NCBI RefSeq assembly: GCF_018398935.1
Contig: NZ_CP074694.1
Span: 360,001-392,000, forward strand
DNA length: 32,000 nucleotides
Direction: 5' to 3'
Source of the DNA: Telmatocola sphagniphila
GTDB taxonomy: Bacteria; Planctomycetota; Planctomycetia; Gemmatales; Gemmataceae
Made by a program: the position numbers and the translations under genes. Shown piece by piece: positions 11,601-32,000 of the stretch (position 1 is the first letter of the stretch; each line of letters opens with the position of its first letter). The notes beneath the pieces were generated by a model. It was given only the letters and a program-made list of their open reading frames with translations. It made no database searches and was not told where the DNA came from.

Positions 11601-13016
11601 CGTGCTGCGCAGAAACTCGAATTGATTGGTGTCAGGCTTGTAGCGATAGAAGCCCTGGCCGAAACGGAAATTTTCGCTGCCGATGGTGCCGTTGAAGCCC
11701 GAGTAACCGACCATGCCGTAGATCCAGTTGTCCAACCCGTAGTGCAGGTTGCTGGGCCCGGCGTGGGTGTCGTTAGTATGCCAACCGGTAAAGAGCACTC
11801 GGCGTTCATCGGCGTGTCCGCTTCCAGTGTTATCCTTCAGGAAAAGGGTATCGGGTGCCTGATGCACGATCACACCGCCCCGATGGAAAATCAGGCTGGT
11901 GGGAATACTCAATTTATCGGCAAAAACGGTGATCTTGTCGGCCACTCCCTTACCGGTGGTGTCCTCACAAATCACGATCTTATCACGGCCCTGTCCCTTG
12001 GGTTGCAACTCGTTCGGGTAATCGTAAGTCAGTGCCACCCAGAGTCGGCCCTGTTCATCCCAGTTCATGCAGATCGGCTTGCCGCCGAGCTTTTCTTCGG
12101 AGACGAAGAGCTTGATGTCGAAATCATCGGGATGAACGACGTGCTTCACCGATTCTTCGGGAGAAAGCGGCTTCTGCATCTTGTTCAAAGGTTCGCGTTT
12201 TTCGCCGGCTTTTTTGCCGGGAGGATAAAAGGCCACTTTGGCCGGTACGTATTCAAATGGTTTGAGATCGTTGGGAAGTTCGGTAATTTTGGGTTTTGCA
12301 TCGGCTTTGGGAAGGGTCGCGGGATCGAGACCGACGGCCCAGTAAACGCCTCGGGCCACCAGTTGCTGGAAGCCTTCATTGCTCCAGGTACGGTCGTCAT
12401 GGCCCCAGGCGGTATAAAACACGCGGCCTTTGCCTTGAGTACGAGTCCAAGTCCAGGGTTCCTTGCCAGAACCTTCGGGGTGATATTCCAGAACCGTCCG
12501 ATTTTTTTCGTTGTGTTTGTGGTGAACGTAGGTTTCATCCCAGCTTTCGAAGGGCTGGAAGCCTTTCATGATGGGATGGTCGGGCAGGGCGATTTCGGTC
12601 TTCAATATCCCGGTACCGTGTCGTTGGAATTGAGCCCCAACGAGTTCAATGTACTTCGGTGAATTGAGGAAGCAGTAGGAACCGCAGTGCAGGCAGATCA
12701 GGGCTTTGCCATTCTCGACATAGTTGATCAGGGCCGATTCCTGTTCCTTGCTGATCTTCTCCTGATTGGCATAGATCATGATCGCATCGTACCGGCTCAA
12801 CGTCTTTTCATTCAAAGAATCGACGGAATCGGTGTACACCAATTCGATTCCCATCTTTTCCAGGACCGGAGCCAGCGTTCGATAGCGCTCGGCCGGTTGG
12901 TGATGGCCGTTGTCACCCAGGAAAAGGAGGGTGAGTTTTTTCGGCGGTGCGGCTTGGCCGCTGAATCCTATCGCCAGGGCAGCGATGCAGAGACAAGAGA
13001 GTAAACGCTTGATCAT
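8664..13016 (-). CDS. Giant multidomain PVC-type heme-binding CxxCH protein (ThuA-like domain + membrane-bound-dehydrogenase-like beta-propeller + HEAT repeats + cytochrome c domain + C-terminal domain of unknown function)
   Basis: Signal peptide MIKRLLSCLCIAALAIGFSG. ThuA-like block (LLFLGDNGHH ... LICLHCGSYCF ... FYTAWGHDD). Dehydrogenase-like block (PLSPEESVKHVVHPDDFDIKLFVSEE ... NWDEQGRLWV). Ala/Leu-rich HEAT-like repeats. Heme c site KHCAICHRINGEGNMVGPDLTG. The track start 13031 is TTG; I use ATG 13016. Confidence 0.85.
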   Translation of the reverse strand: MIKRLLSCLCIAALAIGFSGQAAPPKKLTLLFLGDNGHHQPAERYRTLAPVLEKMGIELVYTDSVDSLNEKTLSRYDAIMIYANQEKISKEQESALINYVENGKALICLHCGSYCFLNSPKYIELVGAQFQRHGTGILKTEIALPDHPIMKGFQPFESWDETYVHHKHNEKNRTVLEYHPEGSGKEPWTWTRTQGKGRVFYTAWGHDDRTWSNEGFQQLVARGVYWAVGLDPATLPKADAKPKITELPNDLKPFEYVPAKVAFYPPGKKAGEKREPLNKMQKPLSPEESVKHVVHPDDFDIKLFVSEEKLGGKPICMNWDEQGRLWVALTYDYPNELQPKGQGRDKIVICEDTTGKGVADKITVFADKLSIPTSLIFHRGGVIVHQAPDTLFLKDNTGSGHADERRVLFTGWHTNDTHAGPSNLHYGLDNWIYGMVGYSGFNGTIGSENFRFGQGFYRYKPDTNQFEFLRSTNNNSWGIGLSEEGVLFGSTANGNPSVYMPIANRYYERVLGWSSSVLSGIAGNAPIHPITENVRQVDWHGGHTAAAGHALYTARNYPSYYWDKVAFVTEPTGHVISTFQISPKGSDYVSKNSWNLIASNDEWTAPIMAEVGPDGSVWYIDWYNFIVQHNPTPVGWTTGKGGAYETDLRDKKLGRIYRVVPKNAKSEVAFTLKGATPEKLVETLRNSNMFWRNHAQRLLVERGQKDVVPQLMALLKSPKPDEIGIDAGSMHALWTLEGLNALDTAETQQAVFAALTSPAAGVRRAAVQLLPRTEAGLNKLLESNVLEDSDAQVRLAALLTLSEMPPSAAAGKALVQFLENPLNSGDRWLRDASTAAAATHAPHFVTALFDAAAKQPLNFSPTEILGIVTEHMARSGKGSSVLDALSSLESKIDEKTWPKVSELVNSYLQAAIKGWTKKGRVTLSEVQVKSLKQLYQKVNFQTKGQLLQVAQLCESTIFDKESAEITEAGFKIAGDEKAPDNQRVAAVRQLVQLTRSDAKSIEKLLGLITPRTPPVVSQAVVESVLQNSSEATGTVLKMFNSWSPNLKGAALREIIARKNLTLDLLTAMEKQQISISELSLDQKQNLANNADRRIAERAKKLLASGGGIPNADRQKVIDEWMFTTKKAGDSKIGKQMFTKHCAICHRINGEGNMVGPDLTGMSVHPKEELIVHILDPSRSVEGNYRMYTVKTAAGTVLNGLLASETKTSVELIDAQAKKQTILREDIEEITTSNKSLMPEGFEKQMNADEFANLLEFLTEKGKFVPLPLDRVATACSIKGMFFDDAGMAERLTFSDWKPKTFNGVPFVLVDPTDGKRNIVLLNSPNGLKTPNMPKSVSLACNTAARSIHILGGISGWGYPYGAKGSTSMIVRLHYKDGKVEDHPLKNGEEMADYIRVVDVPNSKLAFKVPSQQIRYLSVTPKSNAVIENIELVKGRDETAPIVVAVTVETP

Positions 13017-13207
13017 TTCTTTTGCTCGCAACAGAATATCCTTGCGTATTCAGTATCGCAAAGACAGAGTAGACAATTGATAACTATAGTACAGTAAAGC
13101 AGTCAAACTTTACATTGCATGCAGATGAAAAATTTAGGAATGTTTCCGTTTTGAACGCTTGCATGCGATAACCGCAGTCCGAATCCTTCGATCACCGAGG
13201 TAGAAAC

Positions 13208-16186
13208 TTGTCCGCTTGCAAATCCTCTCTTTTCGCCTTCCTATTGTCCACGATAGCAGTACTGCTCTGCAACAAGAATGTTTCGCAGGTTACGGCGGCG
13301 GAACCCAAGTTCGTTAAAGAAGATCGCCTGGTGCTTCAGCTAGTCGCCAGTGATCCCGACATTGTGACCCCGACTGGTATCGCGGTCGATTCTCAGGGAC
13401 GAATCTGGGTCATCGAAAATCATACTCATCAGCGCCCATCGAACTACAAAGGGCCGGCCACGGATCGCATCCGGCTCCTGGAAGATTTCGAACCGAAGAC
13501 GGGAAAAGCCAAGAAAATCACAACGGTCTATGAGGGTTTCAAGAATTCGATGGGGCTGGCTTTCAGTCCGGAAGGCCGGTTATTCCTGGCTACTCGCGCG
13601 GCCATTTTGGAACTCGTTCTGTCCAAGGAAGGTAATTCGGTAGTTGAGAAAAAAGAGATTCTTCGCCTGGAAACCAAGGGCGACTATCCGCATAACGGCC
13701 TCAGCGGTTTTGCATTCGATAGCGTTGGCCACATGATTTTCGGACTGGGAGAAAATCTCGGCGAGAACTACTCCATCGTCGGCAGCGACGGCAAGAAATG
13801 GAACGGCGGTGGCGAAGGAGGATCCGTTTTTCGCTGTAAGCCGGATGGTTCGAATTTGGAACGAGTCGCCACCGGTTTCTGGAATCCCTTCGCCCAAGCA
13901 TACGATACCGCCGGGCATCTCTTCATTGTGGATAACGATCCGGATGCTCGCGGCCCCTGTCGATTGGTGCATGTCATCGACGGAGGAGATTACGGTTATC
14001 GCTTCCGTTATGGACGCAAAGGTTTGCATCCGTTCGTTTGTTGGAATGGGGAACTCCCCGGCTGCCTGCCGATGGCGGCCGGCACGCTGGAAGCCCCATC
14101 CGGTCTTTTGTGTTATCAGCATGGGTTGTTACCGCAGGATTATTACGGCAAACTTTTCTCGACCTCCTGGGGCGATCACGTCATTGAAGTGTTTGAAACC
14201 AAACCCAAAGGATCGAGTTTCGAGGCAACTTCGCGAATTCTGGTGAAAGGGGATGAGAACTTCCGACCGGTGGGAATTGTGCAATGTCCCGATGGTACGC
14301 TGGTGTTTTCCGATTGGGTCGATAAGTCCTATCCAGTGCACGGCAAAGGAAAGATCTGGCGCCTGGCCCCGAAATCGGAGAGTCGTTTTTCACCGAAAAT
14401 TATCAACGATCAGACCAATAATCTGGTGTTGAAGCGGCTGATGAACGATGAGGACAAGGTCGTTCGGGAACTGGCCGCTCGGGAGATGGTGAAGAGAGGT
14501 GGTGCGGATCGCGATGTGGTCATTAAAGCGCTTTCGGACAAAACCCGTCCGCGCGCGGCCACGGCCAGCCTCCACGCTTTGTTTAGTTCCACGCAGAAGG
14601 AGCGAACCGAAATTCTGGGGGCGATGCTGACCAACACCCCGGTTCAGGCGGAAGCTCTTCGGCTCTTGCAATTCGATCCTAAATTAAGCGAAGCCATGCG
14701 GCCCTCGCTGATGCCGTTGTTGGTCGCCAAGCCGAACCCGGAAGTCAGCCGGGAAATCCTCGCGGCGTTAACGGATAATTTTGACCTGCTGGTTGCACTC
14801 GAAGAGAGTCGCAGCGAGGATCCCTTCGTACGTGCAACCGTCATTGATCTTTTGGACCGATTAATGCCGATGCCCCAGCTGGAGTCGCTCGTCACATCCA
14901 GCACCACCGCCCAGGACCCGAAAAGATTGACGGCCGCTCTAGTTGCTTTCCAGCGAAAATTGGCCAAGGGAGCAGAAACCCAGGCAGATCTCTCGGCCTT
15001 GTTGACGCATGCCGATCCTGTCGTTCGGCAGACGCTGGTTCGCATTATTGCGGAGCAGAAACTATCGGCCTATTATCCCAAGCTCAGCGATGTGTTGAGT
15101 GTCCAGCCGGTGACGCGCGAACTGGTGGAGACTTTTGTCGCCGCAGAGAATTGGATCGCGTTCAAAGAGCCGGTGATGCGAAATGAATTCGATGCTTCCG
15201 AAGGTGTGATTCGCTATCTCGAGGACACTAAATATCCGGAGAATATTCGGGCCCAATTTCTGAAACTGGCTGATCCTAATGCACCCAAACTGAAAACTGC
15301 TACTCTCGTGAAATGGGCCGGTTCCTCGAAGCCGGATATTCGATTACAGGCTGTGAAACTGCTCGCCATCAGGCAAGATCACGAAGCCAAAGCTTATTTT
15401 CGAACACTCTATACCGATGCCCAACTCTCAAAAGATTTAAGGAGTTGGATGGCCCTGGGCTTGGCGAATGCGAATAAGCCGGAGGATGTTGGTTGGCTTT
15501 TGAACCAGTCGCAATCGGACATTTCGCTCGAGGCCGTGCGTTCGCTGCAATCTTTGAAACTCGATACCAAACAAAAAGCATCGGTGCTGGCCGATCTCAG
15601 CAAATCGACCGCAAAAGATGTGGAGTATGCTGAAGCACTCGTCCGTTTCGCCAAGCATCAGGGCCTGTCGGAAAAGGTCGATGGATCCGTACTCGAAAAA
15701 GTCCCAGGTCGGCCGAAAGCCGTCACCGATCAGTCCGGTTGGGAGAAAATTCTGGCCGGGTCGGGAGATCCCGCGGCCGGGGAACGCCTATTCTTCCATC
15801 CCAACGGGCCGAAATGCTATAGCTGCCATCGGGTTCAAGGCCGGGGCGCCATGATCGGACCTGAACTCTCACAGATCGGTGGAGCGTTGAAGCGGGAAAA
15901 ATTGATCGAATCGATTCTGCAGCCGAGCAAGGAAATTGCCCCTTTGTTCACGGCCTGGCAGATCACCACGGTCGATGGCAAATCGCGTTTGGGACTGATT
16001 ATCAGCGAGAATTTTGACAGCACCGTCAGCATCGCGGATGGTAACGGCAAGATCGAGCGGATCCCGAAGCTGGATATCGAAGATCGTAAAGCTTCCACGA
16101 AATCGCTGATGCCGGATGGACTGGAGCAGTTGATGACCCTGAAGGAGTTTCGGGATCTGATTGCCTATCTGGAGTCGTTGAAATAG
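13208..16186 (+). CDS. PVC-type heme-binding CxxCH protein (beta-propeller dehydrogenase-like + HEAT repeats + cytochrome c domain)
   Basis: TTG start with GAGG 8 nt upstream and an N-terminal signal peptide. Propeller-like N-terminal half (DSQGRIWVIENH, GHLFIVDNDPD). HEAT-like repeats. C-terminal heme site PKCYSCHRVQGRGAMIGPELSQIG followed by SLMPDGLE, the same architecture as the C-terminal part of the divergent neighbour. Confidence 0.8.
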   Translation: MSACKSSLFAFLLSTIAVLLCNKNVSQVTAAEPKFVKEDRLVLQLVASDPDIVTPTGIAVDSQGRIWVIENHTHQRPSNYKGPATDRIRLLEDFEPKTGKAKKITTVYEGFKNSMGLAFSPEGRLFLATRAAILELVLSKEGNSVVEKKEILRLETKGDYPHNGLSGFAFDSVGHMIFGLGENLGENYSIVGSDGKKWNGGGEGGSVFRCKPDGSNLERVATGFWNPFAQAYDTAGHLFIVDNDPDARGPCRLVHVIDGGDYGYRFRYGRKGLHPFVCWNGELPGCLPMAAGTLEAPSGLLCYQHGLLPQDYYGKLFSTSWGDHVIEVFETKPKGSSFEATSRILVKGDENFRPVGIVQCPDGTLVFSDWVDKSYPVHGKGKIWRLAPKSESRFSPKIINDQTNNLVLKRLMNDEDKVVRELAAREMVKRGGADRDVVIKALSDKTRPRAATASLHALFSSTQKERTEILGAMLTNTPVQAEALRLLQFDPKLSEAMRPSLMPLLVAKPNPEVSREILAALTDNFDLLVALEESRSEDPFVRATVIDLLDRLMPMPQLESLVTSSTTAQDPKRLTAALVAFQRKLAKGAETQADLSALLTHADPVVRQTLVRIIAEQKLSAYYPKLSDVLSVQPVTRELVETFVAAENWIAFKEPVMRNEFDASEGVIRYLEDTKYPENIRAQFLKLADPNAPKLKTATLVKWAGSSKPDIRLQAVKLLAIRQDHEAKAYFRTLYTDAQLSKDLRSWMALGLANANKPEDVGWLLNQSQSDISLEAVRSLQSLKLDTKQKASVLADLSKSTAKDVEYAEALVRFAKHQGLSEKVDGSVLEKVPGRPKAVTDQSGWEKILAGSGDPAAGERLFFHPNGPKCYSCHRVQGRGAMIGPELSQIGGALKREKLIESILQPSKEIAPLFTAWQITTVDGKSRLGLIISENFDSTVSIADGNGKIERIPKLDIEDRKASTKSLMPDGLEQLMTLKEFRDLIAYLESLK

Positions 16187-21886: not shown

Positions 21887-22312
21887 TCAGGATTTCCGCG
21901 ACACGACTACCAGTCCGGCTAAGATTAACGCCGTGCCGATGGCTACCCGCAAAGTGATTTTTTCGCCCAGGAGCAACCAGGCCAGCAGCACGGCCACGAC
22001 GAAGCTTCCCTTGTCGATTAAGGCAATCGTTGAAACCTCTCCCAGTTGTAGCGCTTTGTAATAAAAGATCCAGGAAATGACCGTGGTGGCCGCAGAAAGG
22101 CCGAGCCACAGGTAATTTCCTTTGGTGAGTTGATCGAATTCTGATCGGGAAACCGTGAGTGCTGCAAAACCGAGAACGAAAACGCAGACGAACGCCGTGC
22201 GGACCGAAAGCCCGAGTTCGCTGCCGATACCCGAGAGGCCTTGTTTGGCGATTACCGAAGTAAAACCGGCGAAAATCATGGAGATGATCGCATAAAGAAT
22301 CCATCGTTCCAT
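21887..22312 (-). CDS. Half-size EamA-domain (DMT superfamily) transporter
   Basis: I start at ATG 22312 (MERWILYAIISMIFAGFTSVIAKQGL), which is preceded by AGGAAG. ~141 aa with 4-5 hydrophobic helices and a C-terminal ALILAGLVVV typical of a single EamA domain. Divergent from the encapsulin operon. Confidence 0.7.
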   Translation of the reverse strand: MERWILYAIISMIFAGFTSVIAKQGLSGIGSELGLSVRTAFVCVFVLGFAALTVSRSEFDQLTKGNYLWLGLSAATTVISWIFYYKALQLGEVSTIALIDKGSFVVAVLLAWLLLGEKITLRVAIGTALILAGLVVVSRKS

Positions 22313-22549
22313 CGCTGCTTCCTTTATCCCTGGCCAGGTCACGGACGAACTGCTTCTGATTATAGCCAACAAAATTGGTCCACTTGGTAAGGTTGACAAA
22401 GTGGGTAGAGCGGGAGATTCTCTTTGGCCGACAGGCTATCGAGCTTTTATCCTACTACTAATAAATTTCAACGATTGATTGTACATCCCAGACGCAGGAA
22501 TTAGGACATGTCGGACAATCTGTTACAGCGGAGTGTCACCACTGCAGTA

Positions 22550-23921
22550 GCCCGTAACCTGGCGAACACGACGAAGACATCGCCGAAGATGACGTCGATC
22601 ACGCCGCGTTGGCTGTTGAGTTTATTGCCGTGGGTTCAGGTGGACGGGGGCACGTACCGTGTGAATCGTACGAAGGTGGAGTTATCGAAGGCGGCGCGTA
22701 TAGGAGTGGATGTGTCTGGGGGAGTGGCGTCGTTTGCTCCGGAGTCGTTGCGGGGTGTTCCGTTGTTTTCGGGTTTGCCGGACGGTGTGGTGAGTCGTAT
22801 GGCGAGTCGATTCAAGACGGAAGAGGTATCGTTGGGTAACAAGTTGATAGTGGAGGGTGAGGACCGGAGCAAGTTTTTCATAATAGCGCAGGGTCAGGTG
22901 GAGGTATTGAGCAAGGGTATTCACGGGAGTGACTTGCGAATCGCGTTATTGTCGGATGGGGAGTATTTTGGGGAGAGCGATTTGGTGTTGGACAATCGTC
23001 CGTCGGATGTGACGGTACGTACGACGACGCCGTGTGTGTTGGTGACGTTATCGCGTAAGGATTTGGATGGGGTGTTGGAGGAGTCGGGGAATTTGCGGGA
23101 GGATTTTAATCGTGCGATCAAGGAGCATATGGATTTGCGTTCGACGGTGAATCGTTATGGGGAGCGGAACATAGATTTGGTGAGTGGATTTGCGGAGAAC
23201 GTGGAGATACCTGAGACGTTTGTGGATTATTCATCGAGTCCGCGGGAGTATTCGTTATCGTCGGTTCAGACGGTGGTGCGTGTTCATACGCGGGTGTCGG
23301 ATTTGTACAACGGTCCGTTCAATCAGTTAGAAGAGCAGATGCGTTTGACGATCGAGGGTATTAAGGAGCGTCAGGAGTGGGAGTTGATCAACAACAAGAA
23401 GTTTGGATTGATCAATTCGGTGGATCCGGCGATGCGTATCAGTACGCGATATGGGGCACCGACGCCGGACGATTTGGATGAGTTGTTGGCGTTGGTGTGG
23501 AAGAAGCCGGCTTTTTTTCTGGCTCATCCGAAGGCGATAGCGGCGTTTGAGCGGGAGTGTACGTGGCGGGGTGTTCCCCGGTGACGATGAATTTGTTTGG
23601 GACTCCGGTGATCAGTTGGCGGGGTGTGCCGTTGGTTCCGTGCGACAAGTTGGAGATGAAGAGTCGTTATCAGTCGAATCAGTGGTTTGGTACGACGAGT
23701 ATATTGTTGGTGCGGGTGGGTGAGGCGGACCAGGGTGTGGTGGGTCTTCATCAGGCGGGGATACCCGGGGAGATCATGCCGAGTCTGTCGGCTCGATTGA
23801 TGGGTTTGGACAGTTTGGGAGTGGCATCGTATCTGTTGACGCTGTACTTTTCGTGTGCGGTGCTGACCGACGATGCGTTGGGCGTTCTCGAAAACGTCGA
23901 AGTCGGATACTACCACGATTA
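22550..23921 (+). repeat. Direct repeat copy A (1372 nt) of tandem shell-gene duplication, period 1506 bp
   Basis: I compared it by eye against 24056..25428. Only two differences were found: C22593 versus T24099, and the C4/C5 indel. Confidence 0.9.
22751..23101 (+). other. Cyclic-nucleotide-binding (CAP effector-type) domain inside shell copy A
   Basis: Same sequence as in copy B: [19 protein letters not shown] ... [22 protein letters not shown]. Confidence 0.7.
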
Positions 23922-24013
23922 CGAACATCGCAAAAATGGATTCGAACACGGGCTGGGAATCTAATTTCCCCTTATTCTTCTCAAAGCGAACACAACTCTA
24001 GAGGTGCATGCAT

Positions 24014-25456
24014 ATGTCTGATGGTCTTCTGCAACGGAGTGTCACTACTTCCGTGGCCCGTAACCTGGCGAACACGACGAAGACATCGCCGAAGATGATG
24101 TCGATCACGCCGCGTTGGCTGTTGAGTTTATTGCCGTGGGTTCAGGTGGACGGGGGCACGTACCGTGTGAATCGTACGAAGGTGGAGTTATCGAAGGCGG
24201 CGCGTATAGGAGTGGATGTGTCTGGGGGAGTGGCGTCGTTTGCTCCGGAGTCGTTGCGGGGTGTTCCGTTGTTTTCGGGTTTGCCGGACGGTGTGGTGAG
24301 TCGTATGGCGAGTCGATTCAAGACGGAAGAGGTATCGTTGGGTAACAAGTTGATAGTGGAGGGTGAGGACCGGAGCAAGTTTTTCATAATAGCGCAGGGT
24401 CAGGTGGAGGTATTGAGCAAGGGTATTCACGGGAGTGACTTGCGAATCGCGTTATTGTCGGATGGGGAGTATTTTGGGGAGAGCGATTTGGTGTTGGACA
24501 ATCGTCCGTCGGATGTGACGGTACGTACGACGACGCCGTGTGTGTTGGTGACGTTATCGCGTAAGGATTTGGATGGGGTGTTGGAGGAGTCGGGGAATTT
24601 GCGGGAGGATTTTAATCGTGCGATCAAGGAGCATATGGATTTGCGTTCGACGGTGAATCGTTATGGGGAGCGGAACATAGATTTGGTGAGTGGATTTGCG
24701 GAGAACGTGGAGATACCTGAGACGTTTGTGGATTATTCATCGAGTCCGCGGGAGTATTCGTTATCGTCGGTTCAGACGGTGGTGCGTGTTCATACGCGGG
24801 TGTCGGATTTGTACAACGGTCCGTTCAATCAGTTAGAAGAGCAGATGCGTTTGACGATCGAGGGTATTAAGGAGCGTCAGGAGTGGGAGTTGATCAACAA
24901 CAAGAAGTTTGGATTGATCAATTCGGTGGATCCGGCGATGCGTATCAGTACGCGATATGGGGCACCGACGCCGGACGATTTGGATGAGTTGTTGGCGTTG
25001 GTGTGGAAGAAGCCGGCTTTTTTTCTGGCTCATCCGAAGGCGATAGCGGCGTTTGAGCGGGAGTGTACGTGGCGGGGTGTTCCCCCGGTGACGATGAATT
25101 TGTTTGGGACTCCGGTGATCAGTTGGCGGGGTGTGCCGTTGGTTCCGTGCGACAAGTTGGAGATGAAGAGTCGTTATCAGTCGAATCAGTGGTTTGGTAC
25201 GACGAGTATATTGTTGGTGCGGGTGGGTGAGGCGGACCAGGGTGTGGTGGGTCTTCATCAGGCGGGGATACCCGGGGAGATCATGCCGAGTCTGTCGGCT
25301 CGATTGATGGGTTTGGACAGTTTGGGAGTGGCATCGTATCTGTTGACGCTGTACTTTTCGTGTGCGGTGCTGACCGACGATGCGTTGGGCGTTCTCGAAA
25401 ACGTCGAAGTCGGATACTACCACGATTATCAGCACCGGATGTCTACTCCAAAATAA
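24014..25456 (+). CDS. Family 2B encapsulin nanocompartment shell protein (HK97-fold with cNMP-binding domain), intact copy
   Basis: 480 aa. ATG 24014 aligns with the copy A start and has AGAGG 10 nt upstream (an alternative ATG lies at 24008). The N-terminal block [40 protein letters not shown] matches, from memory, the conserved N-arm of family 2 encapsulins such as SrpI. A cNMP-binding domain follows, then ~280 further residues with no helix-turn-helix. The downstream gene is an N-terminally extended cysteine desulfurase. The HK97 fold itself cannot be verified by eye. Confidence 0.7.
   Translation: MSDGLLQRSVTTSVARNLANTTKTSPKMMSITPRWLLSLLPWVQVDGGTYRVNRTKVELSKAARIGVDVSGGVASFAPESLRGVPLFSGLPDGVVSRMASRFKTEEVSLGNKLIVEGEDRSKFFIIAQGQVEVLSKGIHGSDLRIALLSDGEYFGESDLVLDNRPSDVTVRTTTPCVLVTLSRKDLDGVLEESGNLREDFNRAIKEHMDLRSTVNRYGERNIDLVSGFAENVEIPETFVDYSSSPREYSLSSVQTVVRVHTRVSDLYNGPFNQLEEQMRLTIEGIKERQEWELINNKKFGLINSVDPAMRISTRYGAPTPDDLDELLALVWKKPAFFLAHPKAIAAFERECTWRGVPPVTMNLFGTPVISWRGVPLVPCDKLEMKSRYQSNQWFGTTSILLVRVGEADQGVVGLHQAGIPGEIMPSLSARLMGLDSLGVASYLLTLYFSCAVLTDDALGVLENVEVGYYHDYQHRMSTPK
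24056..25428 (+). repeat. Direct repeat copy B (1373 nt) of tandem shell-gene duplication
   Basis: See copy A. The flanks are diverged: the first 42 nt of the two genes differ at 12 positions, and the 3-prime tails encode different C-termini (EHRKNGFEHGLGI versus QHRMSTPK). Confidence 0.9.
24257..24607 (+). other. Cyclic-nucleotide-binding (CAP effector-type) domain inside shell copy B
   Basis: [51 protein letters not shown] ... [40 protein letters not shown]. The FGE and downstream Arg of the phosphate-binding cassette are present. Confidence 0.75.
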
Positions 25457-25480
25457 TTCACCCCAACTGAGAGCGGCACC

Positions 25481-27130
25481 ATGAACGAAATCACTCCGGA
25501 TTTGATTGCTTCGATTGCCAGCCGGCTTTACAACGAGTTGCCGGGGGCGAATACTGTCCCCAAAACCGAGTCGGATCTGCAGGGAATCGCTTCTCAGGGA
25601 GCGTTACCCACATCTCCTGTGGGCGATTTGAAAGCGCCCCCGACCATGCCCGCATCGATCCTGCCAGCCATGCAGATGCCGCAATCTCCGAACCTGCCGA
25701 GTCTTCTTGAGGCGTTCCGTCCGATGCCGGAAAGCTATGCAATGCCGGTTCCGGAAGTGCAGCATGCCCCCAAAAATCCCGAAGGTTTGAAGGCCTTCGT
25801 TCAACGCGTTCAAATGACCGGAGTGCGCAAAGATTCGGGCCAGTGCAATTCCGACCTGGGAGATGGAATTGTTGCCAAGCTCTTCGATCCCCGAGTCCTC
25901 AATACCGGTTCGAGCCGGCCGTTGGATGTGGTGGCCATTCGCAAGGATTTCCCGGTCTTGCATCAGAAGATCCACGGCAAACCGCTGGCCTGGCTGGATA
26001 ACGCCGCGACGACTCAGAAACCCCAGAGCGTCATCGATGCCATCTCCCGTTTTTATGCCAACGACAACTCGAACATTCACCGGGGAGCCCATACCCTCGC
26101 CGCCCGGGCTACCGACGCTTACGAACAGGCCCGCCAGAAGGTGCAGACTTTCCTGGGAGCTTCCAGCGCAAAAGAAATCGTTTTCGTTCGGGGCACGACT
26201 GAGGGAGTGAACTTAATCGCTCAAACCTACGGCAAGAAATTTTTGCAGCCGGGCGATGAAATCGTTTTATCCACGCTCGAGCACCACGCGAACATCGTTC
26301 CCTGGCAGATGATCGCCAAGGAAAAAGGGGCGATCATTCGAGTCATTCCGGTCAACGACCGCGGCGAAATCATGCTCGAGCAGTATCAAGCGATTCTCGG
26401 GCCGAAAACCAAATTGGTGGCTCTCACTCACGCTTCCAATAGCCTCGGAACGATCCTGCCGGTGTCGGAAATGACGCAACTGGCCAAGCGCTATAACGCT
26501 CGGGTGCTGATCGATGGAGCCCAATCGGTTTCGCACATGCCGGTCGATATGCAGCAACTGAACTGCGATTTCTTCGTATTCTCCGGCCACAAGATTTTTG
26601 GTCCAACAGGTATCGGTGCGGTGTACATCAAGGAAGAATTGCACGAGATGCTGCCGCCCTGGCAAGGGGGCGGCAATATGATTCGCAACGTGACGTTCGA
26701 AGAAACCACCTACAGCGATGCCCCGGCCAAATTCGAAGCGGGTACGCCGAATATCGCGGACGCGGTCGGACTGGGGGCGGCTCTCGATTACGTCAATCGC
26801 ATCGGCCTGGTCAACATCGGCCAGTACGAACACAAACTTCTGGAATACGCGACCGAAAAATTGTCGCACATTCCCGGCCTGCGATTACTGGGCACCGCCA
26901 AGGACAAAGTGAGTGTGATCTCTTTCGTGTTGAAGGATCGCAAGACGGAAGAGGTAGGCCGAATGCTCGATCAGGAAGGAATTGCCGTGCGGGCGGGGCA
27001 CCACTGTGCCCAGCCTTCGCTGCGCCGATTTGGTGTGGAAAGCACCGTACGGCCTTCGTTCTCTCTTTATAATACGATGGAAGAGGTCGATCGATTGGTC
27101 GATGCGGTGCGGCGAATTCAACGAGTTTAA
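25481..27130 (+). CDS. SufS/CsdA-type cysteine desulfurase (class V aminotransferase) with ~147-aa disordered N-terminal extension
   Basis: Core motifs: RKDFPVLHQKIHGKPLAWLDNAATTQKP, NIHRGAHTLA, SGHKIFGPTGIGAVY (PLP lysine), RAGHHCAQP (catalytic Cys loop). Residues 1-147 are Pro/Ala/Met/Ser-rich with no counterpart in canonical SufS, which starts near the xxVRxDFPVL block. Confidence 0.9.
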   Translation: MNEITPDLIASIASRLYNELPGANTVPKTESDLQGIASQGALPTSPVGDLKAPPTMPASILPAMQMPQSPNLPSLLEAFRPMPESYAMPVPEVQHAPKNPEGLKAFVQRVQMTGVRKDSGQCNSDLGDGIVAKLFDPRVLNTGSSRPLDVVAIRKDFPVLHQKIHGKPLAWLDNAATTQKPQSVIDAISRFYANDNSNIHRGAHTLAARATDAYEQARQKVQTFLGASSAKEIVFVRGTTEGVNLIAQTYGKKFLQPGDEIVLSTLEHHANIVPWQMIAKEKGAIIRVIPVNDRGEIMLEQYQAILGPKTKLVALTHASNSLGTILPVSEMTQLAKRYNARVLIDGAQSVSHMPVDMQQLNCDFFVFSGHKIFGPTGIGAVYIKEELHEMLPPWQGGGNMIRNVTFEETTYSDAPAKFEAGTPNIADAVGLGAALDYVNRIGLVNIGQYEHKLLEYATEKLSHIPGLRLLGTAKDKVSVISFVLKDRKTEEVGRMLDQEGIAVRAGHHCAQPSLRRFGVESTVRPSFSLYNTMEEVDRLVDAVRRIQRV

Positions 27131-27154
27131 CTCAAGCTGAATGGAGTCCCAGTT

Positions 27155-27700
27155 ATGTCTCTGATGGTGCTACCGCCCTCCGAAGTTCTGCAAAAATTGA
27201 AATCGAAATCCGGCAAGCTCATCGATGTGCGAACTCCCGCCGAGTACGAATCGCTTCATGCCGAAGGGGCGGTGTTGATGCCGCTCGACAAGCTGGATCC
27301 GCTAGCTCTGAAAACCAACTATCCCGATAACGATTTCTACGTGATTTGCCGTTCGGGAGGACGGGGCAAACAGGCTTGCGAAAAGTTGCAGGCCGCCGGG
27401 ATTGATCGGGTCATCAACGTTGAAGGCGGAACCCTGGCCTGGGAAAAAGAGGGATTGCCCGTTATTCGCGGTCGCCAGACCATGTCCCTCGAACGTCAGG
27501 TTCGCATTGCCGCGGGAAGTCTGGTCGTGATGGGATTAAGCCTGGGTTACTTCATTCATCAGGCGTTTTTTGGCATCTCGGCTTTCGTCGGTTGCGGGCT
27601 CGTGTTCGCGGGACTTACCGATACCTGCGGAATGGGTATGATTCTCGCCAAAATGCCCTGGAATAATCGAAAGCCCGTAGCCAGTTGTCAGGTAAGTTGA
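27155..27700 (+). CDS. Rhodanese-domain sulfurtransferase fused to DUF2892 (YgaP-like) membrane segment
   Basis: Rhodanese active-site loop VICRSGGRGKQA. The C-terminal hydrophobic region AAGSLVVMGLSLGYF ... GCGLVFAGLTDTCGMG is typical of DUF2892. GGAG lies 9 nt upstream of the ATG, and the gene starts 24 nt after the desulfurase stop. Confidence 0.85.
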   Translation: MSLMVLPPSEVLQKLKSKSGKLIDVRTPAEYESLHAEGAVLMPLDKLDPLALKTNYPDNDFYVICRSGGRGKQACEKLQAAGIDRVINVEGGTLAWEKEGLPVIRGRQTMSLERQVRIAAGSLVVMGLSLGYFIHQAFFGISAFVGCGLVFAGLTDTCGMGMILAKMPWNNRKPVASCQVS

Positions 27701-27720
27701 ATCTGCGACAGAACTTCAAG

Positions 27721-27766
27721 AAATGAAAAAACCCCGCTGAGTTTGGTGTTCCACTCTCAGACGGGG
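27721..27766 (-). terminator. Rho-independent-type terminator read on the minus strand (hairpin + U-tract), possibly also acting for the plus-strand operon
   Basis: ccccgctgag (27732-27741) pairs with ctcagacgggg (27756-27766) with one bulge. On the minus strand the hairpin is followed by ttttttcattt (complement of 27721-27731). It lies downstream of the minus-strand aminotransferase stop (27936) and 21 nt after the rhodanese stop. Confidence 0.5.
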
Positions 27767-27935
27767 CCGGAACAGAGAAGAGGCTGTTTGTAAAAGTAAC
27801 TAAGCGTTGTAAATATGTCAATCTCAGCTTGTAAATATTTCCAAGATAACCACTTACTGCTTTTCTAAATACATTCCATTTCGCCTAAATTACCATTTCG
27901 TGTAGATATTATACGCTACATTATGGGTTCCCGAT

Positions 27936-29111
27936 TTATTTGCTGGCAGCGGGCATCTTCTGTCGGAGCTTAACGAGCTTCTCACCGGCTTTGTGCAGCG
28001 TCTCATCCTTCTTGGCGAACATAAAGCGAACTTTAGTACGGCCCAACTCCTTCGGCTCGTAGAAACTGCTGCCCGGTACGCCGGCGACCCCGACTTTTTC
28101 GATCATCGTGCGGACGAATTCGACGTCGTTGTTCCAGCCCATTTTGGAGAAATCGCACATGACATAATAGGCCCCGTCGGGGGCATGAAATTCGAAACCG
28201 GCTTCCTGAAGGTAAGGCAGAAAGATCTGTCGGCGATGGAGATAATCGGACTTCAATTTGGCGTAGTAGGCTTCACCGAAGCCGATGGCCGCGGTGCCGG
28301 CGACCTGTAATGGATGCGGGGCGCCCACCGTCAGAAAATCGTGAGCCTTTCGGATGCCGGAAGTGATCTCGGGCGGTGCCACACAATATCCCAGTCTCCA
28401 ACCGGTGACACTGAAAGTTTTCGACAAACCGCTGATCGTCACTGTGCGATTGGCCATGCCAGGCAGCGAAGCAATGCTGATGTGCGGACGGTCGGTGTAC
28501 TGAATGTATTCGTAGATCTCATCGGAGAGGGCAAAGGCGTTATGTTCCTGGCAGAGTTGAGCAATGAATTCCAGTTCCTCGCGATTGAAAACCTTCCCAG
28601 TTGGGTTATTGGGCGTGTTAATGATGATTGCTTTGGTTTTGGAATTGAAGGCTTTACGCAACTCGTCCCGGTCGAAGCTCCAATCCGGGGCCCGCAAGGT
28701 GACAAAGACTCGCTTGGCTCCCGTTAAGAGGGCATCCGGGCCGTAGTTCTCGTAGAAGGGCTGGAAGATAATCACTTCATCGCCGGGATTGATGAGCGCC
28801 AGCATGGTGGCCATCATGCATTCGGTGGCTCCGCAGCACACCGTGATATGGGCATCGGCATCGCACCACTCGAGCTTGTTGAAAGTGCGCATCTTCCCGG
28901 CGATGGCCTGCCGCAAGCTGGCGATTCCCCAGGTCACGGCGTACTGGTTGTAGCCATCCCGGATCGCTTTGCAGGCGGCCTCTTTCAGATCGGGGTGCGG
29001 ATCGAAATCGGGCATTCCCTGTCCCAGATTCAATGCCTGAAATTGATTCGCCAGCCGGGTCGTTTCTCGAATCACCGATTCTGTGAAATAGCTGACGCGA
29101 TCGGAAAGCAT
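27936..29111 (-). CDS. PLP-dependent aminotransferase class I/II (YbdL / kynurenine aminotransferase / glutamine transaminase K-like)
   Basis: LNLGQGMPDF, YNQYAVTWGIASLRQAIAGK, INTPNNPTGKVF and SGLSKTFSVTGWRLGY (PLP lysine) motifs. I use ATG 29111, with AAGGAG 9 nt upstream (the track start 29120 is TTG). It starts 16 nt after the cysW stop. Confidence 0.85.
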   Translation of the reverse strand: MLSDRVSYFTESVIRETTRLANQFQALNLGQGMPDFDPHPDLKEAACKAIRDGYNQYAVTWGIASLRQAIAGKMRTFNKLEWCDADAHITVCCGATECMMATMLALINPGDEVIIFQPFYENYGPDALLTGAKRVFVTLRAPDWSFDRDELRKAFNSKTKAIIINTPNNPTGKVFNREELEFIAQLCQEHNAFALSDEIYEYIQYTDRPHISIASLPGMANRTVTISGLSKTFSVTGWRLGYCVAPPEITSGIRKAHDFLTVGAPHPLQVAGTAAIGFGEAYYAKLKSDYLHRRQIFLPYLQEAGFEFHAPDGAYYVMCDFSKMGWNNDVEFVRTMIEKVGVAGVPGSSFYEPKELGRTKVRFMFAKKDETLHKAGEKLVKLRQKMPAASK

Positions 29112-29127
29112 AAACTTCAACTCCTTG

Positions 29128-30024
29128 CTAAGCCTTGAGCGCGAGATTACTGTTACGGGATTTCTCCTGCCGTAATTTTCGTTCCACGCCGACTTTAATC
29201 AACAGGGTGACCAGAGAAAGCATGGTCAGAACGCTGGCCACGGCGAAGGCCGCCGGAGTGTTATATTCCTGGAAGAGCTTTTCTATGCGTAAAGGCATGG
29301 TATCCGTCTGCGAAGCGATTCGCCCCGATACGACATAGACCGCCCCAAATTCTCCCATCGCTCGTGCGTTGCAGAGAATTACTCCATAAAGCAAGCCCCA
29401 TTTGATATTCGGCAGAGTGATGCGAAAGAACATTTCCCAACCTGAAGCCCCAAGGCTACGGGCGGCGATTTCTTCCTCGCTTCCCACGGCCTCCAGGACC
29501 GGGATCAATTCCCGGGCGATGAAAGGAAAAGTCACAAACGCGGTGGTGAGAACTAAAGCGGGGGGAGCGAAAATAATCTGATAGCCATGCTCGCGGAGCC
29601 AGGCCCCCATCGGCGTCTGCAAACCGAACAGCAGCACAAAAACCAGCCCTGCCACTACGGGTGAGACCGAGAAGGGCAGGTCGATGAGTGTGGTGAGAAT
29701 CGTTCGGCCGGGGAAACGAAAGCGGGCGATGGTCCAGGCCGCGGCCACACCGAATATCAGGTTCATGGCCACGGCCACGGGAACCACCATCAGCGTCAGA
29801 AAAATGGCATGGCGGGTATCGGGATCGGCGGTGATATTTTTCCAGTAGACCAGCATACCCCGGCTAAAGGCTTGCACGAACACGCTGATCAACGGCACCA
29901 CCACCAGAATGCCGACGATGCCGAAGGTTAGTCCGATAAGGACAATTCGGACAAGCAGGGGATCACTCGATCGCCGCTTGGCATACGGCACAATATCGCG
30001 GACATCTTGAGCTTTAGCTTCCAT
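29128..30024 (-). CDS. cysW: Sulfate/thiosulfate ABC transporter permease CysW
   Basis: 298-aa polytopic permease with an ABC permease EAA-type loop (EEIAARSLGASGWEMFFRITLPNIKWGL). It is second in the sbp-cysT-cysW order and overlaps the cysT stop by 11 nt. Confidence 0.8.
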   Translation of the reverse strand: MEAKAQDVRDIVPYAKRRSSDPLLVRIVLIGLTFGIVGILVVVPLISVFVQAFSRGMLVYWKNITADPDTRHAIFLTLMVVPVAVAMNLIFGVAAAWTIARFRFPGRTILTTLIDLPFSVSPVVAGLVFVLLFGLQTPMGAWLREHGYQIIFAPPALVLTTAFVTFPFIARELIPVLEAVGSEEEIAARSLGASGWEMFFRITLPNIKWGLLYGVILCNARAMGEFGAVYVVSGRIASQTDTMPLRIEKLFQEYNTPAAFAVASVLTMLSLVTLLIKVGVERKLRQEKSRNSNLALKA

Positions 30025-30838
30025 GCCGTTTGCTCCAGCGTTCCAGAAGATTGATCGTGACCAGCAAAAGAAACGAGAAACTCAACAGCACGACGGCGAT
30101 GGCTGCCGCTTCCCGGTAGGAGAATTCTTCGAGCCGAGCCACGATGAGGGATGGGGCAATCTCCGTTTTGGAAGGGATGTTGCTGGAAATGAACACCACC
30201 GAGCCATATTCCCCAATAGACCGGGCGAAGGCGAGCGTGAAACCGGTCAGAGCAGGGGGGATCAGAGTTGGCAGGAGCACCCGCCGGAAGCTCTGCCAGC
30301 GGTCCGCGCCGAGAATGCCCGCCGCTTCTTCCACTTCGCTGTCGATTTCTTCGAGCACCGGTTGCACCGTTCGCACGACGAAAGGAAAGCCGGTGAATAT
30401 CAAAACCAGCACGATGCCGAATTGAGAATACGCTCCTTCAATTCCCAGTGGAACTAAAAACTGACCAAACCAGCCATCCTTCACATACAGGCTGGCGTAG
30501 ACCAGGCCCGCCACGGCGGTCGGCAGGGCGAAGGGCACATCCACCAGGGCATCGATCACGCGTTTTAATGGAAATTCATACCGCACGAGAGACCAGGCGA
30601 CAATCAGACCCAAGACCGTGTTGACCAGTGCGGCAATCAGAGACAGGCTGAAGGTCAGCTTGTAAGCAGCAATCGCTCGGGGAGTCCAGACCGCCGCGAT
30701 GAAATCTCGAACTCCCAATTCCGAAGCTTTGAGAAAGCAGGCCAGCAAAGGAATGAGGACTAACAGACTGAGATAGGAAACCGTGTAACCCAGGCCGAGC
30801 GAGTAGCCGGGCAGTATATTTCGATTGGCTGAACTCAA
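30014..30838 (-). CDS. cysT: Sulfate/thiosulfate ABC transporter permease CysT
   Basis: 274 aa. N-terminus NRNILPGYSLGLGYTVSYLSLLVLIPL resembles the E. coli CysT N-terminus (RRVLPGF...). EAA loop EEAAGILGADRWQSFRRVLLP. TTG start with GGAG 6 nt upstream. Confidence 0.8.
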   Translation of the reverse strand: MSSANRNILPGYSLGLGYTVSYLSLLVLIPLLACFLKASELGVRDFIAAVWTPRAIAAYKLTFSLSLIAALVNTVLGLIVAWSLVRYEFPLKRVIDALVDVPFALPTAVAGLVYASLYVKDGWFGQFLVPLGIEGAYSQFGIVLVLIFTGFPFVVRTVQPVLEEIDSEVEEAAGILGADRWQSFRRVLLPTLIPPALTGFTLAFARSIGEYGSVVFISSNIPSKTEIAPSLIVARLEEFSYREAAAIAVVLLSFSFLLLVTINLLERWSKRHGS

Positions 30839-30888
30839 ATTTTACTCCGCAAAAGCATCCAAGCCGAGGATCCTTCACACTGTCTTGA

Positions 30889-31908
30889 TCAGGGCCGGGC
30901 ATAGATTCCATCGAACACGCCGTTCTCGGCAAAGAACTTCTTCTGAATCGCATCCCAGTTTGGGGCGATCAGGGTGGAAGGAAAAAGGTCGATTGGCGGG
31001 AAGCGATCGGTATAGCGCTTCCAGATTTTCTCGTTGGTCGGCCGATAGAAGTGCTGGGCAATCACTTCCTGGGCCTCTTCCGTGTAGAGGAATTTCAAAT
31101 ATTCCTCGGCCACCACTTTGGTCTTTTTTCGAATCACGTTAGCATCCACAACGGCCACATGCGGTTCGGCCAGAATGCTGGTTTTCGGATAGATGATTTC
31201 CAGTTCGCCCTTCGCTTCCTGCGCTTCCAGATACGCTTCGTTTTCCCAGGTGAGATGGACATCGCCGATCTTTTTGGTCGCAAACGTCATCGTCGCTCCA
31301 CGCGCGGCGGCGTCCAGAACAGGTACATTTTTGTAGAGTCGGGTGACGAAATCGAGAGCATCGTTTTCCGTGCCCCCCTGTTTGAGAATCGCCCCCCAGG
31401 CAGCCAGAAAGCTCCATTTGCCATTCCCGGAAGTCTTGGGATTGGGAGTGATGACGCTGATGTCCGACTTCGTCAGGTCCGACCAGTCTTTGATGCCTTT
31501 GGGATTCCCTTTTCGCACCACAAAAACGATCGTCGAAACATAGGGAAGCGATCGATTCGGCAGCCGATCCTCCCAGCCCGGTTCGATCAGACCGGCCTTG
31601 CGAACGGCATCGGTATCCGACCACAAGGCGAGTGTAATCACGTCGGCATCGAGGCCGTCGATCACGGCACGGGCCTGGCTGCCCGAACCGCCGTGCGACT
31701 GGCGGATCGAGACTTTTTGCCCTTTTTCCTCGGCGAATTTACGGATAAACCGCTCGTTGATGTCTTTCCACAATTCCCGGGTGGGATCGCAGGCGACATT
31801 CAGCAGTTGAATTTCCGACGTGGTTCGAACCACCCCGGAAGCGAGGATCCACAGAGTGGACCCGAGGAGGTAGAGCGCCAGTAGGCCGAGGATAATTTTG
31901 CGTGTCAT
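30889..31908 (-). CDS. sbp: Sulfate ABC transporter periplasmic substrate-binding protein (Sbp/CysP family)
   Basis: Signal anchor, then LLNVACDPTRELWKDINERF ... SIRQSHGGSGSQARAVIDGLDADVITLALWSDTD, which closely matches the conserved Sbp/CysP blocks. Confidence 0.88.
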   Translation of the reverse strand: MTRKIILGLLALYLLGSTLWILASGVVRTTSEIQLLNVACDPTRELWKDINERFIRKFAEEKGQKVSIRQSHGGSGSQARAVIDGLDADVITLALWSDTDAVRKAGLIEPGWEDRLPNRSLPYVSTIVFVVRKGNPKGIKDWSDLTKSDISVITPNPKTSGNGKWSFLAAWGAILKQGGTENDALDFVTRLYKNVPVLDAAARGATMTFATKKIGDVHLTWENEAYLEAQEAKGELEIIYPKTSILAEPHVAVVDANVIRKKTKVVAEEYLKFLYTEEAQEVIAQHFYRPTNEKIWKRYTDRFPPIDLFPSTLIAPNWDAIQKKFFAENGVFDGIYARP

Positions 31909-31945
31909 GGGAATTCACTTTTCTTCGTATGTGTACAATCTACGA

Positions 31946-32000
31946 ATGGAATCGAAATACGACGAAGCCACGGCGTACCACGAGGCCGGTCATGCGGTCG
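31946..32000 (+). CDS. 5-prime fragment of an HEXXH metalloprotease-like gene (FtsH/M41-type motif), runs off the window
   Basis: ATG 31946 gives MESKYDEATAYHEAGHAV. AYHEAGHA is the zinc-binding motif context of M41 peptidases. Only 18 codons are visible. Confidence 0.3.
   Translation, partial: MESKYDEATAYHEAGHAV

Follow-up and report, generated by a model that had tools for sequence, protein, structure and literature searches.

A predicted two-shell family 2B encapsulin operon with a cysteine desulfurase in the planctomycete Telmatocola sphagniphila

Why should a planctomycete keep, one directly behind the other, two nearly identical genes for a protein that resembles a nucleotide-sensing regulator at one end and a phage capsid at the other, followed at once by a gene for a cysteine desulfurase? 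The question is raised by a stretch of 32,000 nucleotides (nt) from Telmatocola sphagniphila (contig NZ_CP074694.1, positions 360,001 to 392,000 of the forward strand), which we call the window and in which all positions below are counted. An original prediction, made from the sequence letters alone, took these genes for a family 2B encapsulin nanocompartment, the type of family 2 shell with an inserted cyclic nucleotide monophosphate (cNMP) binding domain, with the desulfurase as its cargo. After the computational analysis described here we are in very little doubt that the shell genes belong to a family 2B encapsulin system, and the locus as a whole is, with good probability, best explained as a two-shell 2B desulfurase nanocompartment operon with a proposed role in sulfur metabolism. 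The features that carry this reading are as follows.

22508..23964, plus strand: Enc1, shell copy 1, 485 residues after repair of a run of C, with the tail ...GFEHGLGI
22508-23584 and 23557-23964, plus strand: the open reading frames (ORFs) of Enc1 as assembled, 358 and 135 residues (ORF listing)
24014..25456, plus strand: Enc2, shell copy 2, intact, 480 residues (NF041163, PDB sequence matches, AlphaFold2 and Foldseek)
24251..24613, plus strand: cyclic-nucleotide-binding-fold insertion, Enc2 residues ~80-200 (PF00027, Foldseek, alignment)
24650..25420, plus strand: HK97-fold (SrpI-like) domain, Enc2 residues 213-469 (PF19307)
25481..27130, plus strand: SufS-type (group II) cysteine desulfurase, 549 residues, cargo candidate (TIGR01979, motifs)
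25481..25939, plus strand: N-terminal extension of the desulfurase, residues 1-153, putative cargo-loading domain (conserved motifs)
27155..27700, plus strand: membrane-anchored rhodanese, 181 residues (PF00581 E 1.3e-14; PF11127 E 1e-7)

According to the ORF listing and the domain scans these four genes run in the same direction with gaps of 49, 24 and 24 nt, and the rhodanese follows the desulfurase on the same strand as had been foreseen. Enc2 starts at the ATG at 24014 (MSDGLLQRS, as in its orthologues), with GAGGTG 7 nt upstream. The two tandem genes for a protein of about 480 residues are both there; copy 1 is frameshifted into ORFs of 358 and 135 residues, and the two are not simple duplicates.

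Both shell genes encode the same two Pfam domains. In Enc2 the cNMP-binding domain (PF00027) covers residues 111-194 (E 7e-14, 52 bits against a cutoff of 27.5) and the SrpI-like domain (PF19307) residues 213-469 (E 3.5e-115), and the fragments of Enc1 both match the two models as well. On NF041163, the NCBIfam equivalog for family 2B encapsulins, Enc2 scores 601.6 bits where 400 is the cutoff, and it also exceeds the 2A equivalog (433 bits, cutoff 380). A sequence search of the PDB aligns residues 7-467, practically the full length, with the solved 2B shells 9bje (E 3.4e-123), 9bix and 9bhu, in that order, and the HK97 part with SrpI (6x8m, E 2e-106) and the Acinetobacter baumannii shell 8t6r. 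An AlphaFold2 model of Enc2, built from 37 sequences with a mean predicted local distance difference test (pLDDT) of 78.3, has family 2 encapsulin shells only as its top seven Foldseek matches in the PDB (9bhu, 8t6r, 6x8m, 8wol, 9bje, 8won and 9bix), with target TM-scores of 0.91 for 6x8m (root mean square deviation 2.8 Å), 0.91 for 9bje and 0.92 for 8won; after the shells come the cyclic-nucleotide-binding domains of CRP, PKG, HCN and SthK at E of about 1e-10. The profile search of 24014..25456 and the structural comparison, both of which the original prediction had proposed as checks, came out in its favour. From the roughly 50% identity to shells solved by cryo-electron microscopy we would expect the protein to self-assemble into a closed icosahedral shell.

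Could the genes instead encode Crp/Fnr-type transcription factors, or the major capsid protein of a prophage? Some database homologues are named "Crp/Fnr family transcriptional regulator" or "CRP-like cAMP-binding protein". The capsid of phage SPO1 appears low in the Foldseek ranking, and the fold resembles that of HK97. We give these readings practically no chance. The Pfam and NCBIfam scans found no helix-turn-helix in either shell protein, as had been noted earlier for the region behind the cNMP-binding domain, and Enc2 reaches only 31.7 bits on the CRP equivalog, with its nucleotide-binding part only, against a cutoff of 266. Domain scans of the window proteins found no phage genes near the shell genes, no relative of the shell was found among 2.9 million viral contigs, and the PDB entries labelled "Crp/Fnr" (9bje and 9bix) are actually cryo-electron microscopy structures of encapsulin shells. 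With no DNA-binding domain, a CRP score far below its cutoff and neither phage genes nor viral relatives, both the regulator and the prophage capsid were rejected; the two findings that had been named as fatal to the encapsulin reading, a region that lacks an HK97 fold and best matches among ordinary Crp/Fnr regulators, were looked for and did not appear.

Some details of the shell protein deserve mention here. The model has short strands at residues 42-75, where the calcium-binding subdomain (MBD) of 2B shells is expected on the N-terminal side of the inserted domain. An insertion of 8 residues, SRYQSNQW (Enc2 residues 386-393, window 25172-25192), lies in a loop of the A-domain, where Enc1 has an equivalent; the alignments to 6x8m, 8t6r, 9ksl, 8won, 8wol, 9bje and 9bix all have a gap at this place, and no solved shell of family 2A or 2B has the insertion. 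The insertion may be a pore or vertex loop, and the model confidence there is low (pLDDT <50 at residues 388-392). In other genomes this loop often differs between Enc1 and Enc2, e.g. RFRSNKWL and RYQSNQWF. Among the more distant homologues there is one of 997 residues (P0141) in which a 2A-type shell is followed by three Laminin_G_3/ConA-like lectin domains, and two 2B shells (P0123, 848 residues; P0128, 617 residues) have long C-terminal extensions with no Pfam match. Such large additions are consistent with the C-terminus being a site for display on the exterior.

That there are two shell genes is no peculiarity of this genome. We compared the locus with 80 genome loci, every one of which belongs to Planctomycetota (Schlesneria, Planctomicrobium, Pirellulales and relatives; identity reaches 88-89% in the best match), and with a second sample of 80 metagenome loci. 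A full-length Enc1 followed by Enc2, always in this order, is present in 53 of the genome loci, and in these pairs Enc1 has 484-487 residues and Enc2 478-479. In 73 of the 80 the shell gene, single or paired, has the desulfurase gene on its 3' side, which is what the proposed survey of the neighbourhood for cargo was hoped to tell, and the other seven loci end at or soon after the shells; in the metagenome sample two shells are seen in 37/80 and the desulfurase in 52/80. The gene order Enc1, Enc2, desulfurase is conserved across the phylum. All 53 paired loci have an Enc1 tail of the form G-F-x-x-G-[LS]-G-I, and the tail of Enc2 is short, basic and ends in K; in the window the repaired Enc1 ends with ...HRKNGFEHGLGI and Enc2 with ...HRMSTPK. 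When the 53 pairs were compared column by column, the C-terminal tail was the only thing that told Enc1 from Enc2, and no column of the core separates the two types. After repair of the C-run the two proteins of the window differ in three N-terminal residues and the tails, and in nothing else. At the DNA level the copies diverge at both ends, on the 5' side with 12 differences over the first ~45 nt plus a single-nucleotide difference at 22593/24099, and on the 3' side over the last ~30 nt. With two 2B shell genes within 10 kb, Enc1 upstream of Enc2 and the cargo gene adjoining, the locus has the make-up of a two-component system, its Enc1 being frameshifted as assembled. Judged from their sequences, the tandem shell genes are a conserved Enc1/Enc2 pair and not a plain duplication. 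The C-terminal extension of family 2 shells forms a turret at the five-fold vertex (PMC11550324), and by analogy the two types of tail would decorate the five-fold vertices. The difference between Enc1 and Enc2 is reduced to a short tail, and swapping the tails would therefore be simple.

The frameshift in Enc1 and the likeness of the two copies must be considered together, and the following features are needed for this.

22594..23921, plus strand: exactly repeated core, copy 1 (DNA alignment)
24100..25428, plus strand: exactly repeated core, copy 2 (DNA alignment)
23572..23575, plus strand: C4 homopolymer, the frameshift site in Enc1 (C5 in Enc2 at 25078-25082)

The 1.33-kb cores are identical except for one C that is missing from the run in Enc1 (CCCC at 23572-23575, CCCCC at 25078-25082), and this deletion of 1 nt, the sole difference over 1,328 nt, splits the gene into its two ORFs. 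We think it fairly likely that the deletion is an unpolished sequencing error rather than a fresh pseudogene, because it is a change of homopolymer length, stands alone in 1,328 nt and occurs in a window where no other long ORF looks split. A genuine recent pseudogene, in a strain that makes a one-component shell of Enc2 alone, is quite possible too, though we doubt it. The frameshift does stand in the given sequence, about 20 related loci have a single shell gene beside the desulfurase, though many of these lie at contig ends, and Sl-Enc1 and Sl-Enc2 of Streptomyces lydicus assembled differently when they were expressed singly (PMC12407261). Against it we set that the indel is a one-base change in a homopolymer within an exact repeat of 1.3 kb, a place where polishing of a long-read consensus by short reads fails, and that Enc1 is intact in 53/53 paired loci. 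Three related loci on long contig_ records from MFD metagenome-assembled genomes (L014, L018 and L029) have a desulfurase gene that was matched only partially by tblastn; indel errors may have fragmented it, and would then bear on how the frameshift in Enc1 is read. Exact-protein look-ups gave no record for Enc1 (358 residues), Enc2 (482 residues, from the ATG at 24008) or the neighbouring EamA-family protein.

How did the two cores come to be identical? Enc1 and Enc2 of one and the same genome are 77.6% to 100% identical in their cores (median 88.5%), and at least 11 genomes have partners that stand nearer each other than any orthologue. Exact DNA runs between partners reach 1343 nt (L010), 1399 nt (L045) and 596 nt (L026), and runs of about 750 nt (766, 752 and 740 nt) in three further loci (L054, L037 and L072) are restricted to the HK97 half. 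These patterns show recurrent gene conversion across planctomycete pairs, stopping short of the tails, and point to homogenisation of the cores by the same process here, the window being one of the fully homogenised cases. The binding-fold domains of the two shell proteins are therefore identical.

Exact tandem repeats of 1.3 kb are error-prone in assembly, and the frameshift could be taken as a hint of trouble with the consensus, so that one might suspect a single shell gene that has been assembled twice. We find this very improbable. The 5' ends, the 3' tails and the flanks of the copies differ, and they fit the Enc1 and Enc2 types of 53 other genomes. An independent short-read contig (L081, Logan SRR14506984) matches window 25399-32000 with 100% identity and ends 30 nt inside the core, i.e. 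k-1 bases inside the repeat, which is how a de Bruijn graph is expected to end at the boundary of a repeat with two continuations, and the tandem arrangement is therefore taken as real. Near-identical pairs are moreover found in other assemblies, both on NODE_ contigs (L010, L045) and on a contig_ record (L026). With type-specific ends, conservation in 53 genomes and the independent break at the repeat boundary, the artefact was rejected.

The identical core has a second peculiarity, in its codons. Counted per 100 nt, the GC skew lies between +0.3 and +0.57 within the core and at about 0 outside it. Third positions in the core are 54-56% G, 25% T, 10-11% C and 8% A, whereas C makes up 26-41% and G 28-36% in 11 other genes of the window, and 37% and 35% in the pooled orthologous shell genes. 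GCC is used for none of 23 and CGC for none of 30 codons, TTG accounts for 72% of the Leu codons and ATA for 45% of those for Ile, and Lys and Gln are written with AAG and CAG alone (100%). None of 246 orthologous shell genes is as extreme, and one alone (L099) has a milder version. The anomalous tract roughly coincides with the identical core; by codon it runs from ~26 nt upstream of the core (Enc2 codon ~21) to a point ~50-70 nt short of the core's 3' end (codon ~455).

Several candidate causes were tried and rejected. Deamination of C to T does not fit, since four-fold sites with C in the orthologues hold G here in 14 of 16 cases, A in two and T in none, and a bias to transitions only is contradicted by the rise of third-position purines from ~47% to ~63%. 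Generic avoidance of C is weakened by the arginine codons, where AGR is used in 0/30. Selection for an unstructured mRNA fails as well (the core has a mean folding energy of -33.9 kcal/mol per 120 nt, and orthologues matched in GC have -34.6), as does G-quadruplex formation, the G3 motif being absent from the core. A recent foreign donor was not found among the 246 shell genes, where the best DNA identity, 78%, equals the value for the desulfurase gene next door. The codons AAG, GAG and CAG avoid tRNAs that need 2-thiouridine. An adaptation of the codons to sulfur starvation would fit Lys, Glu and Gln; it fails for the avoidance of C, and is seen neither in the orthologues nor in the other sulfur genes here. 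If real, the anomaly would be a clean natural case of localised recoding linked to a gene-conversion tract.

What might the binding-fold domain bind? The original prediction had thought of a possibly ligand-gated compartment, an idea that found no support here, and gating by cyclic nucleotides in particular is doubtful. In an alignment of the domain from the window with E. coli CRP and 28 shells, the phosphate-binding cassette keeps its Gly-Glu, and the equivalent of CRP R82 is a Ser, within R-P-S-D, in the window and in 8/8 planctomycete homologues aligned; the cassette is not the canonical one for cAMP or cGMP. Actinobacterial-type shells have a Trp at this position. The 2B domains of Streptomyces griseus (Sg Enc) and Myxococcus xanthus (MxEnc) do not bind cAMP, and the ligand has not been identified for any 2B shell (PMC11550324; bioRxiv 10.64898/2026.07.21.739788). 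Gating of this shell by cyclic nucleotides seems unlikely because the cassette Arg is replaced by Ser and the 2B domains studied do not bind cAMP. That cAMP or cGMP should sit on the inserted domain and open or close the pores we therefore hold to be improbable, even if the domain scores well above its Pfam cutoff, the Gly-Glu is kept, an Arg or Lys two residues upstream of the Ser is conserved and some other 2B shells retain a P-R-x-A-T cassette. The signal of the domain is probably not canonically bound cAMP or cGMP. The 2B shells with a canonical cassette (FGE...P-R-x-A-T) are P0124, P0126, P0131, P0134, P0137, P0200 and P0228; they qualify the published statement that Trp is nearly universal in 2B shells, at least as read from the alignment, and these seven could be true binders of cyclic nucleotides.

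The gene 24 nt behind Enc2 is the candidate for cargo. As predicted it encodes a SufS-type cysteine desulfurase with an N-terminal extension (residues 1-153); it scores 575.6 bits on the NCBIfam model TIGR01979 (sufS), where the cutoff is 475. The protein has the class-V aminotransferase fold, with the catalytic domain beginning at about residue 150-170, and its motifs are intact: SGHK (residues 368-371) holds the lysine for pyridoxal phosphate, RAGHHC (residues 504-509) the catalytic cysteine. The extension of 153 residues is 13% proline and probably disordered. Two motifs in it are conserved among 69 planctomycete cargo proteins, motif 1, MNEITPDLIASIASRLYNELPG (25481-25546), at the extreme N-terminus in 53 of them, and motif 2, EGLKAFVQRVQ (about 25781-25813; pattern (D/E)GL(K/R)AFVQ), in 21. 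Motif 1 has an R-L-x-N-E core in common with LARLANEFFS, which is a conserved motif of the SrpI cargo (PMC8049743). A desulfurase that adjoins the shell genes and carries an extension with conserved motifs is, by analogy, probably packed inside the shell.

The surroundings also speak of sulfur. The rhodanese has an active-site loop, C65-RSGGR, and behind it a YgaP-like membrane anchor of two helices (PF11127, formerly DUF2892), and a homologue is found near the operon in 30 of the 80 genome loci. About a dozen of these loci have genes for a sulfate transporter no more than 8 kb away. In the window they are, as the prediction had it, close by and all above the NCBIfam curated cutoffs:

30889-31908, minus strand: sbp of the sulfate ABC transporter
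30014-30838, minus strand: cysT
29128-30024, minus strand: cysW
(models for the three genes: TIGR02139, TIGR02140 and NF008022)

A low content of methionine and cysteine is the classic sulfur-sparing mark of proteins induced by sulfur starvation. These sulfur amino acids make up only 0.36% of CysT, where the initiator is the sole Met and Cys occurs once, and 0.88% of Sbp; other proteins of the window have 2.4-7%, and the shell protein, with 3.3%, is not depleted. No gene for a serine O-acetyltransferase was found in the window.

From these pieces we propose how the system might work. About 60 subunits of Enc1 and Enc2 would form a mixed T=1 icosahedral shell, as mixed two-component shells are known (PMC12407261), with the binding-fold domains outside around the two-fold axes and the C-terminal tails at the five-fold vertices, where they are found in other 2B shells (PMC11550324). 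Motifs in its N-terminal domain would tether the desulfurase inside, just as loading in family 2A goes via the N-terminal domain, where the system is also induced by sulfur starvation (PMC8049743). Cysteine would enter the shell, and the desulfurase would convert L-cysteine to alanine and persulfide sulfur that accumulates as a store; an encapsulated desulfurase has been shown to store elemental sulfur, and a role for the rhodanese has been proposed (PMC10836720). The membrane rhodanese would be the likely acceptor that remobilises the sulfur, and induction of the operon by sulfur limitation, together with the adjoining sulfate transporter, is probable by the same analogy. A function in sulfur storage or hand-off under sulfur limitation is probable, and for storage by the compartment in particular we lean slightly towards yes. 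The alternative is that nothing is stored, and that the compartment is a protected generator of persulfide that channels sulfur via the rhodanese to certain acceptors, e.g. thio-cofactors or Fe-S assembly, or that it detoxifies cysteine present in excess. [quoted passage not shown] Yet the sole biochemical data on encapsulated desulfurases show that elemental sulfur accumulates (PMC10836720), and the HK97 domain here is nearest to the sulfur-storing 2A shells; we consider the channelling reading rather unlikely.

A number of findings weigh against a two-shell 2B desulfurase compartment with a role in sulfur metabolism, and we list them together. Full-text searches up to mid-2026 turned up no experiments on a 2B desulfurase system, and we infer assembly, loading, sulfur storage and regulation here by analogy throughout. 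The desulfurase narrowly misses the cutoff of the 2A cargo model NF041166 (789 bits, cutoff 800), since the model leaves its N-terminal domain unaligned and matches the catalytic part alone (profile positions 219-623), and a reading of the N-terminal extension did not find the second cargo motif of family 2A, AASPYYFLDG. The rhodanese and the sulfate transporter adjoin the operon only in a minority of related loci. The A-domain diagnostic motifs 1 and 2 of the Streptomyces type were not found in the pair, both copies having LVWKK, which is Enc1-like, and with Enc1 frameshifted as assembled the genome may produce Enc2 alone. Finally, no explanation was found for the codon recoding of the core, which could reflect a history that we have not reconstructed.

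Where does the locus stand among known systems? With the 2B terpene-cyclase systems (Sl-Enc1/Sl-Enc2 of S. lydicus, 9bje/9bix; Sg Enc/EshA of S. griseus, 9bhu; MxEnc1/2 with GeoA of M. xanthus) it shares the architecture of N-arm, binding-fold insertion, linker and HK97 domain, a tandem pair of shell genes upstream of the cargo gene, and the lack of the canonical cNMP-binding Arg. It differs from them in its cargo, a cysteine desulfurase, in the Ser where actinobacterial 2B shells have Trp, and in a longer, 2A-like C-terminal extension (YYHDY...) with type-specific tails. In the two-component shells of Streptomyces two A-domain motifs are diagnostic for Enc1 and Enc2, and the Enc1s cluster together (PMC12407261), whereas here the A-domain motifs do not separate the two types, only the C-terminal tail does, and the two partners of a genome evolve in concert.

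The 2A desulfurase encapsulins (SrpI of Synechococcus elongatus, 6x8m/6x8t; A. baumannii 118362, 8t6r; mycobacterial MMP-I, 8wol/9ksl) have in common with the locus the SufS-like cargo, its long and disordered N-terminal loading domain with the R-L-x-N-E core, a rhodanese in the operon and the context of sulfur assimilation. The HK97 domain alone also scores higher with the 2A shells (SrpI 319, A. baumannii 304 and MMP-I ~291 bits) than with the terpene-associated 2B shells (286-261 bits). Unlike the 2A systems the locus has the insertion of ~120 residues and the pair of Enc1 and Enc2. The N-terminal domain of its cargo, ~150 residues instead of ~225, stays unaligned in the 2A cargo model, its rhodanese has a YgaP-like membrane anchor, and the window lacks the gene for serine O-acetyltransferase. 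The most fitting description of the shell protein is a family 2 shell of the desulfurase type with the 2B insertion.

The type as such is not new. Andreas & Giessen (2021) catalogued 199 family 2B desulfurase operons from 9 phyla (PMC8346489), and the present locus is an instance of this operon type; such operons make up about 9% of family 2B (PMC11550324), and they are the rarest of the two-component 2B operon types listed by Dutcher et al. (2025; PMC12407261). The automatic NCBI name of homologues is already "family 2B encapsulin nanocompartment shell protein". The surveys give no features specific to planctomycetes (PMC8346489, PMC12407261), and the text of the latter does not contain Planctomycetes; the Enc1/Enc2 tails, the concerted evolution, the Ser of the cassette and the N-terminal motif of the cargo are absent from both. 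The earlier view that characterised desulfurase systems are of family 2A (PMC8049743, PMC10836720) and characterised 2B systems carry terpene cyclases (PMC11550324; bioRxiv 10.64898/2026.07.21.739788) was borne out, and the judgement that the system is essentially uncharacterised stands as regards experiments, but not as regards the catalogue.

It is tempting to go one step further and see here a distinct planctomycete subtype of sulfur organelle together with a recoding process in this genome, though as a joint reading this is a long shot. In such a subtype the two shells could be kept different at their five-fold tails only, the one hydrophobic and ending in GLGI, the other short and basic, and the tails could set the chemistry of the vertex or pore or dock the membrane rhodanese. 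The outward binding-fold domain with its cassette Ser could sense a metabolite of the sulfur status instead of a cyclic nucleotide. As for the recoding, the conversion tract could have been changed to codons that avoid C and end in G by selection at the DNA or RNA level, or by a bias linked to recombination.

No protein-bounded sulfur stores are known apart from encapsulated desulfurases, and these have been studied at the bench only with 2A shells. A 2B shell raises the question whether an enzyme with a substrate as small as that of a desulfurase is regulated by a binding-fold domain displayed on the outside. The planctomycete clade offers an experimental entry, with thousands of homologues in the databases and 85-90% identity across orders. 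There is also a lesson for annotation, as many homologues are still named Crp/Fnr regulators or hypothetical proteins.

The remaining genes of the window are of less concern. The genes for a class I/II aminotransferase, cysW, cysT and sbp lie on the minus strand, convergent to the operon, and the gene upstream of Enc1 is divergent:

21887..22399, minus strand: half-size EamA-family membrane protein, 170 residues (PF00892 E 1.3e-19)

The EamA family has exporters of cysteine and O-acetylserine among its members, and a link of this protein to the operon via such export is speculation on our part. The rest are DUF7133/ThuA/HEAT/cytochrome c proteins, a DUF58 protein and an amino-acid permease, all typical for planctomycetes. 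Two large DUF7133 genes adjoin each other on opposite strands at 8664-16186, the one on the minus strand encoding 1455 residues with ThuA, HEAT and cytochrome c domains and the one on the plus strand 992 residues with HEAT repeats; they are typical putative membrane-bound dehydrogenases of planctomycetes with no relation to the encapsulin operon.

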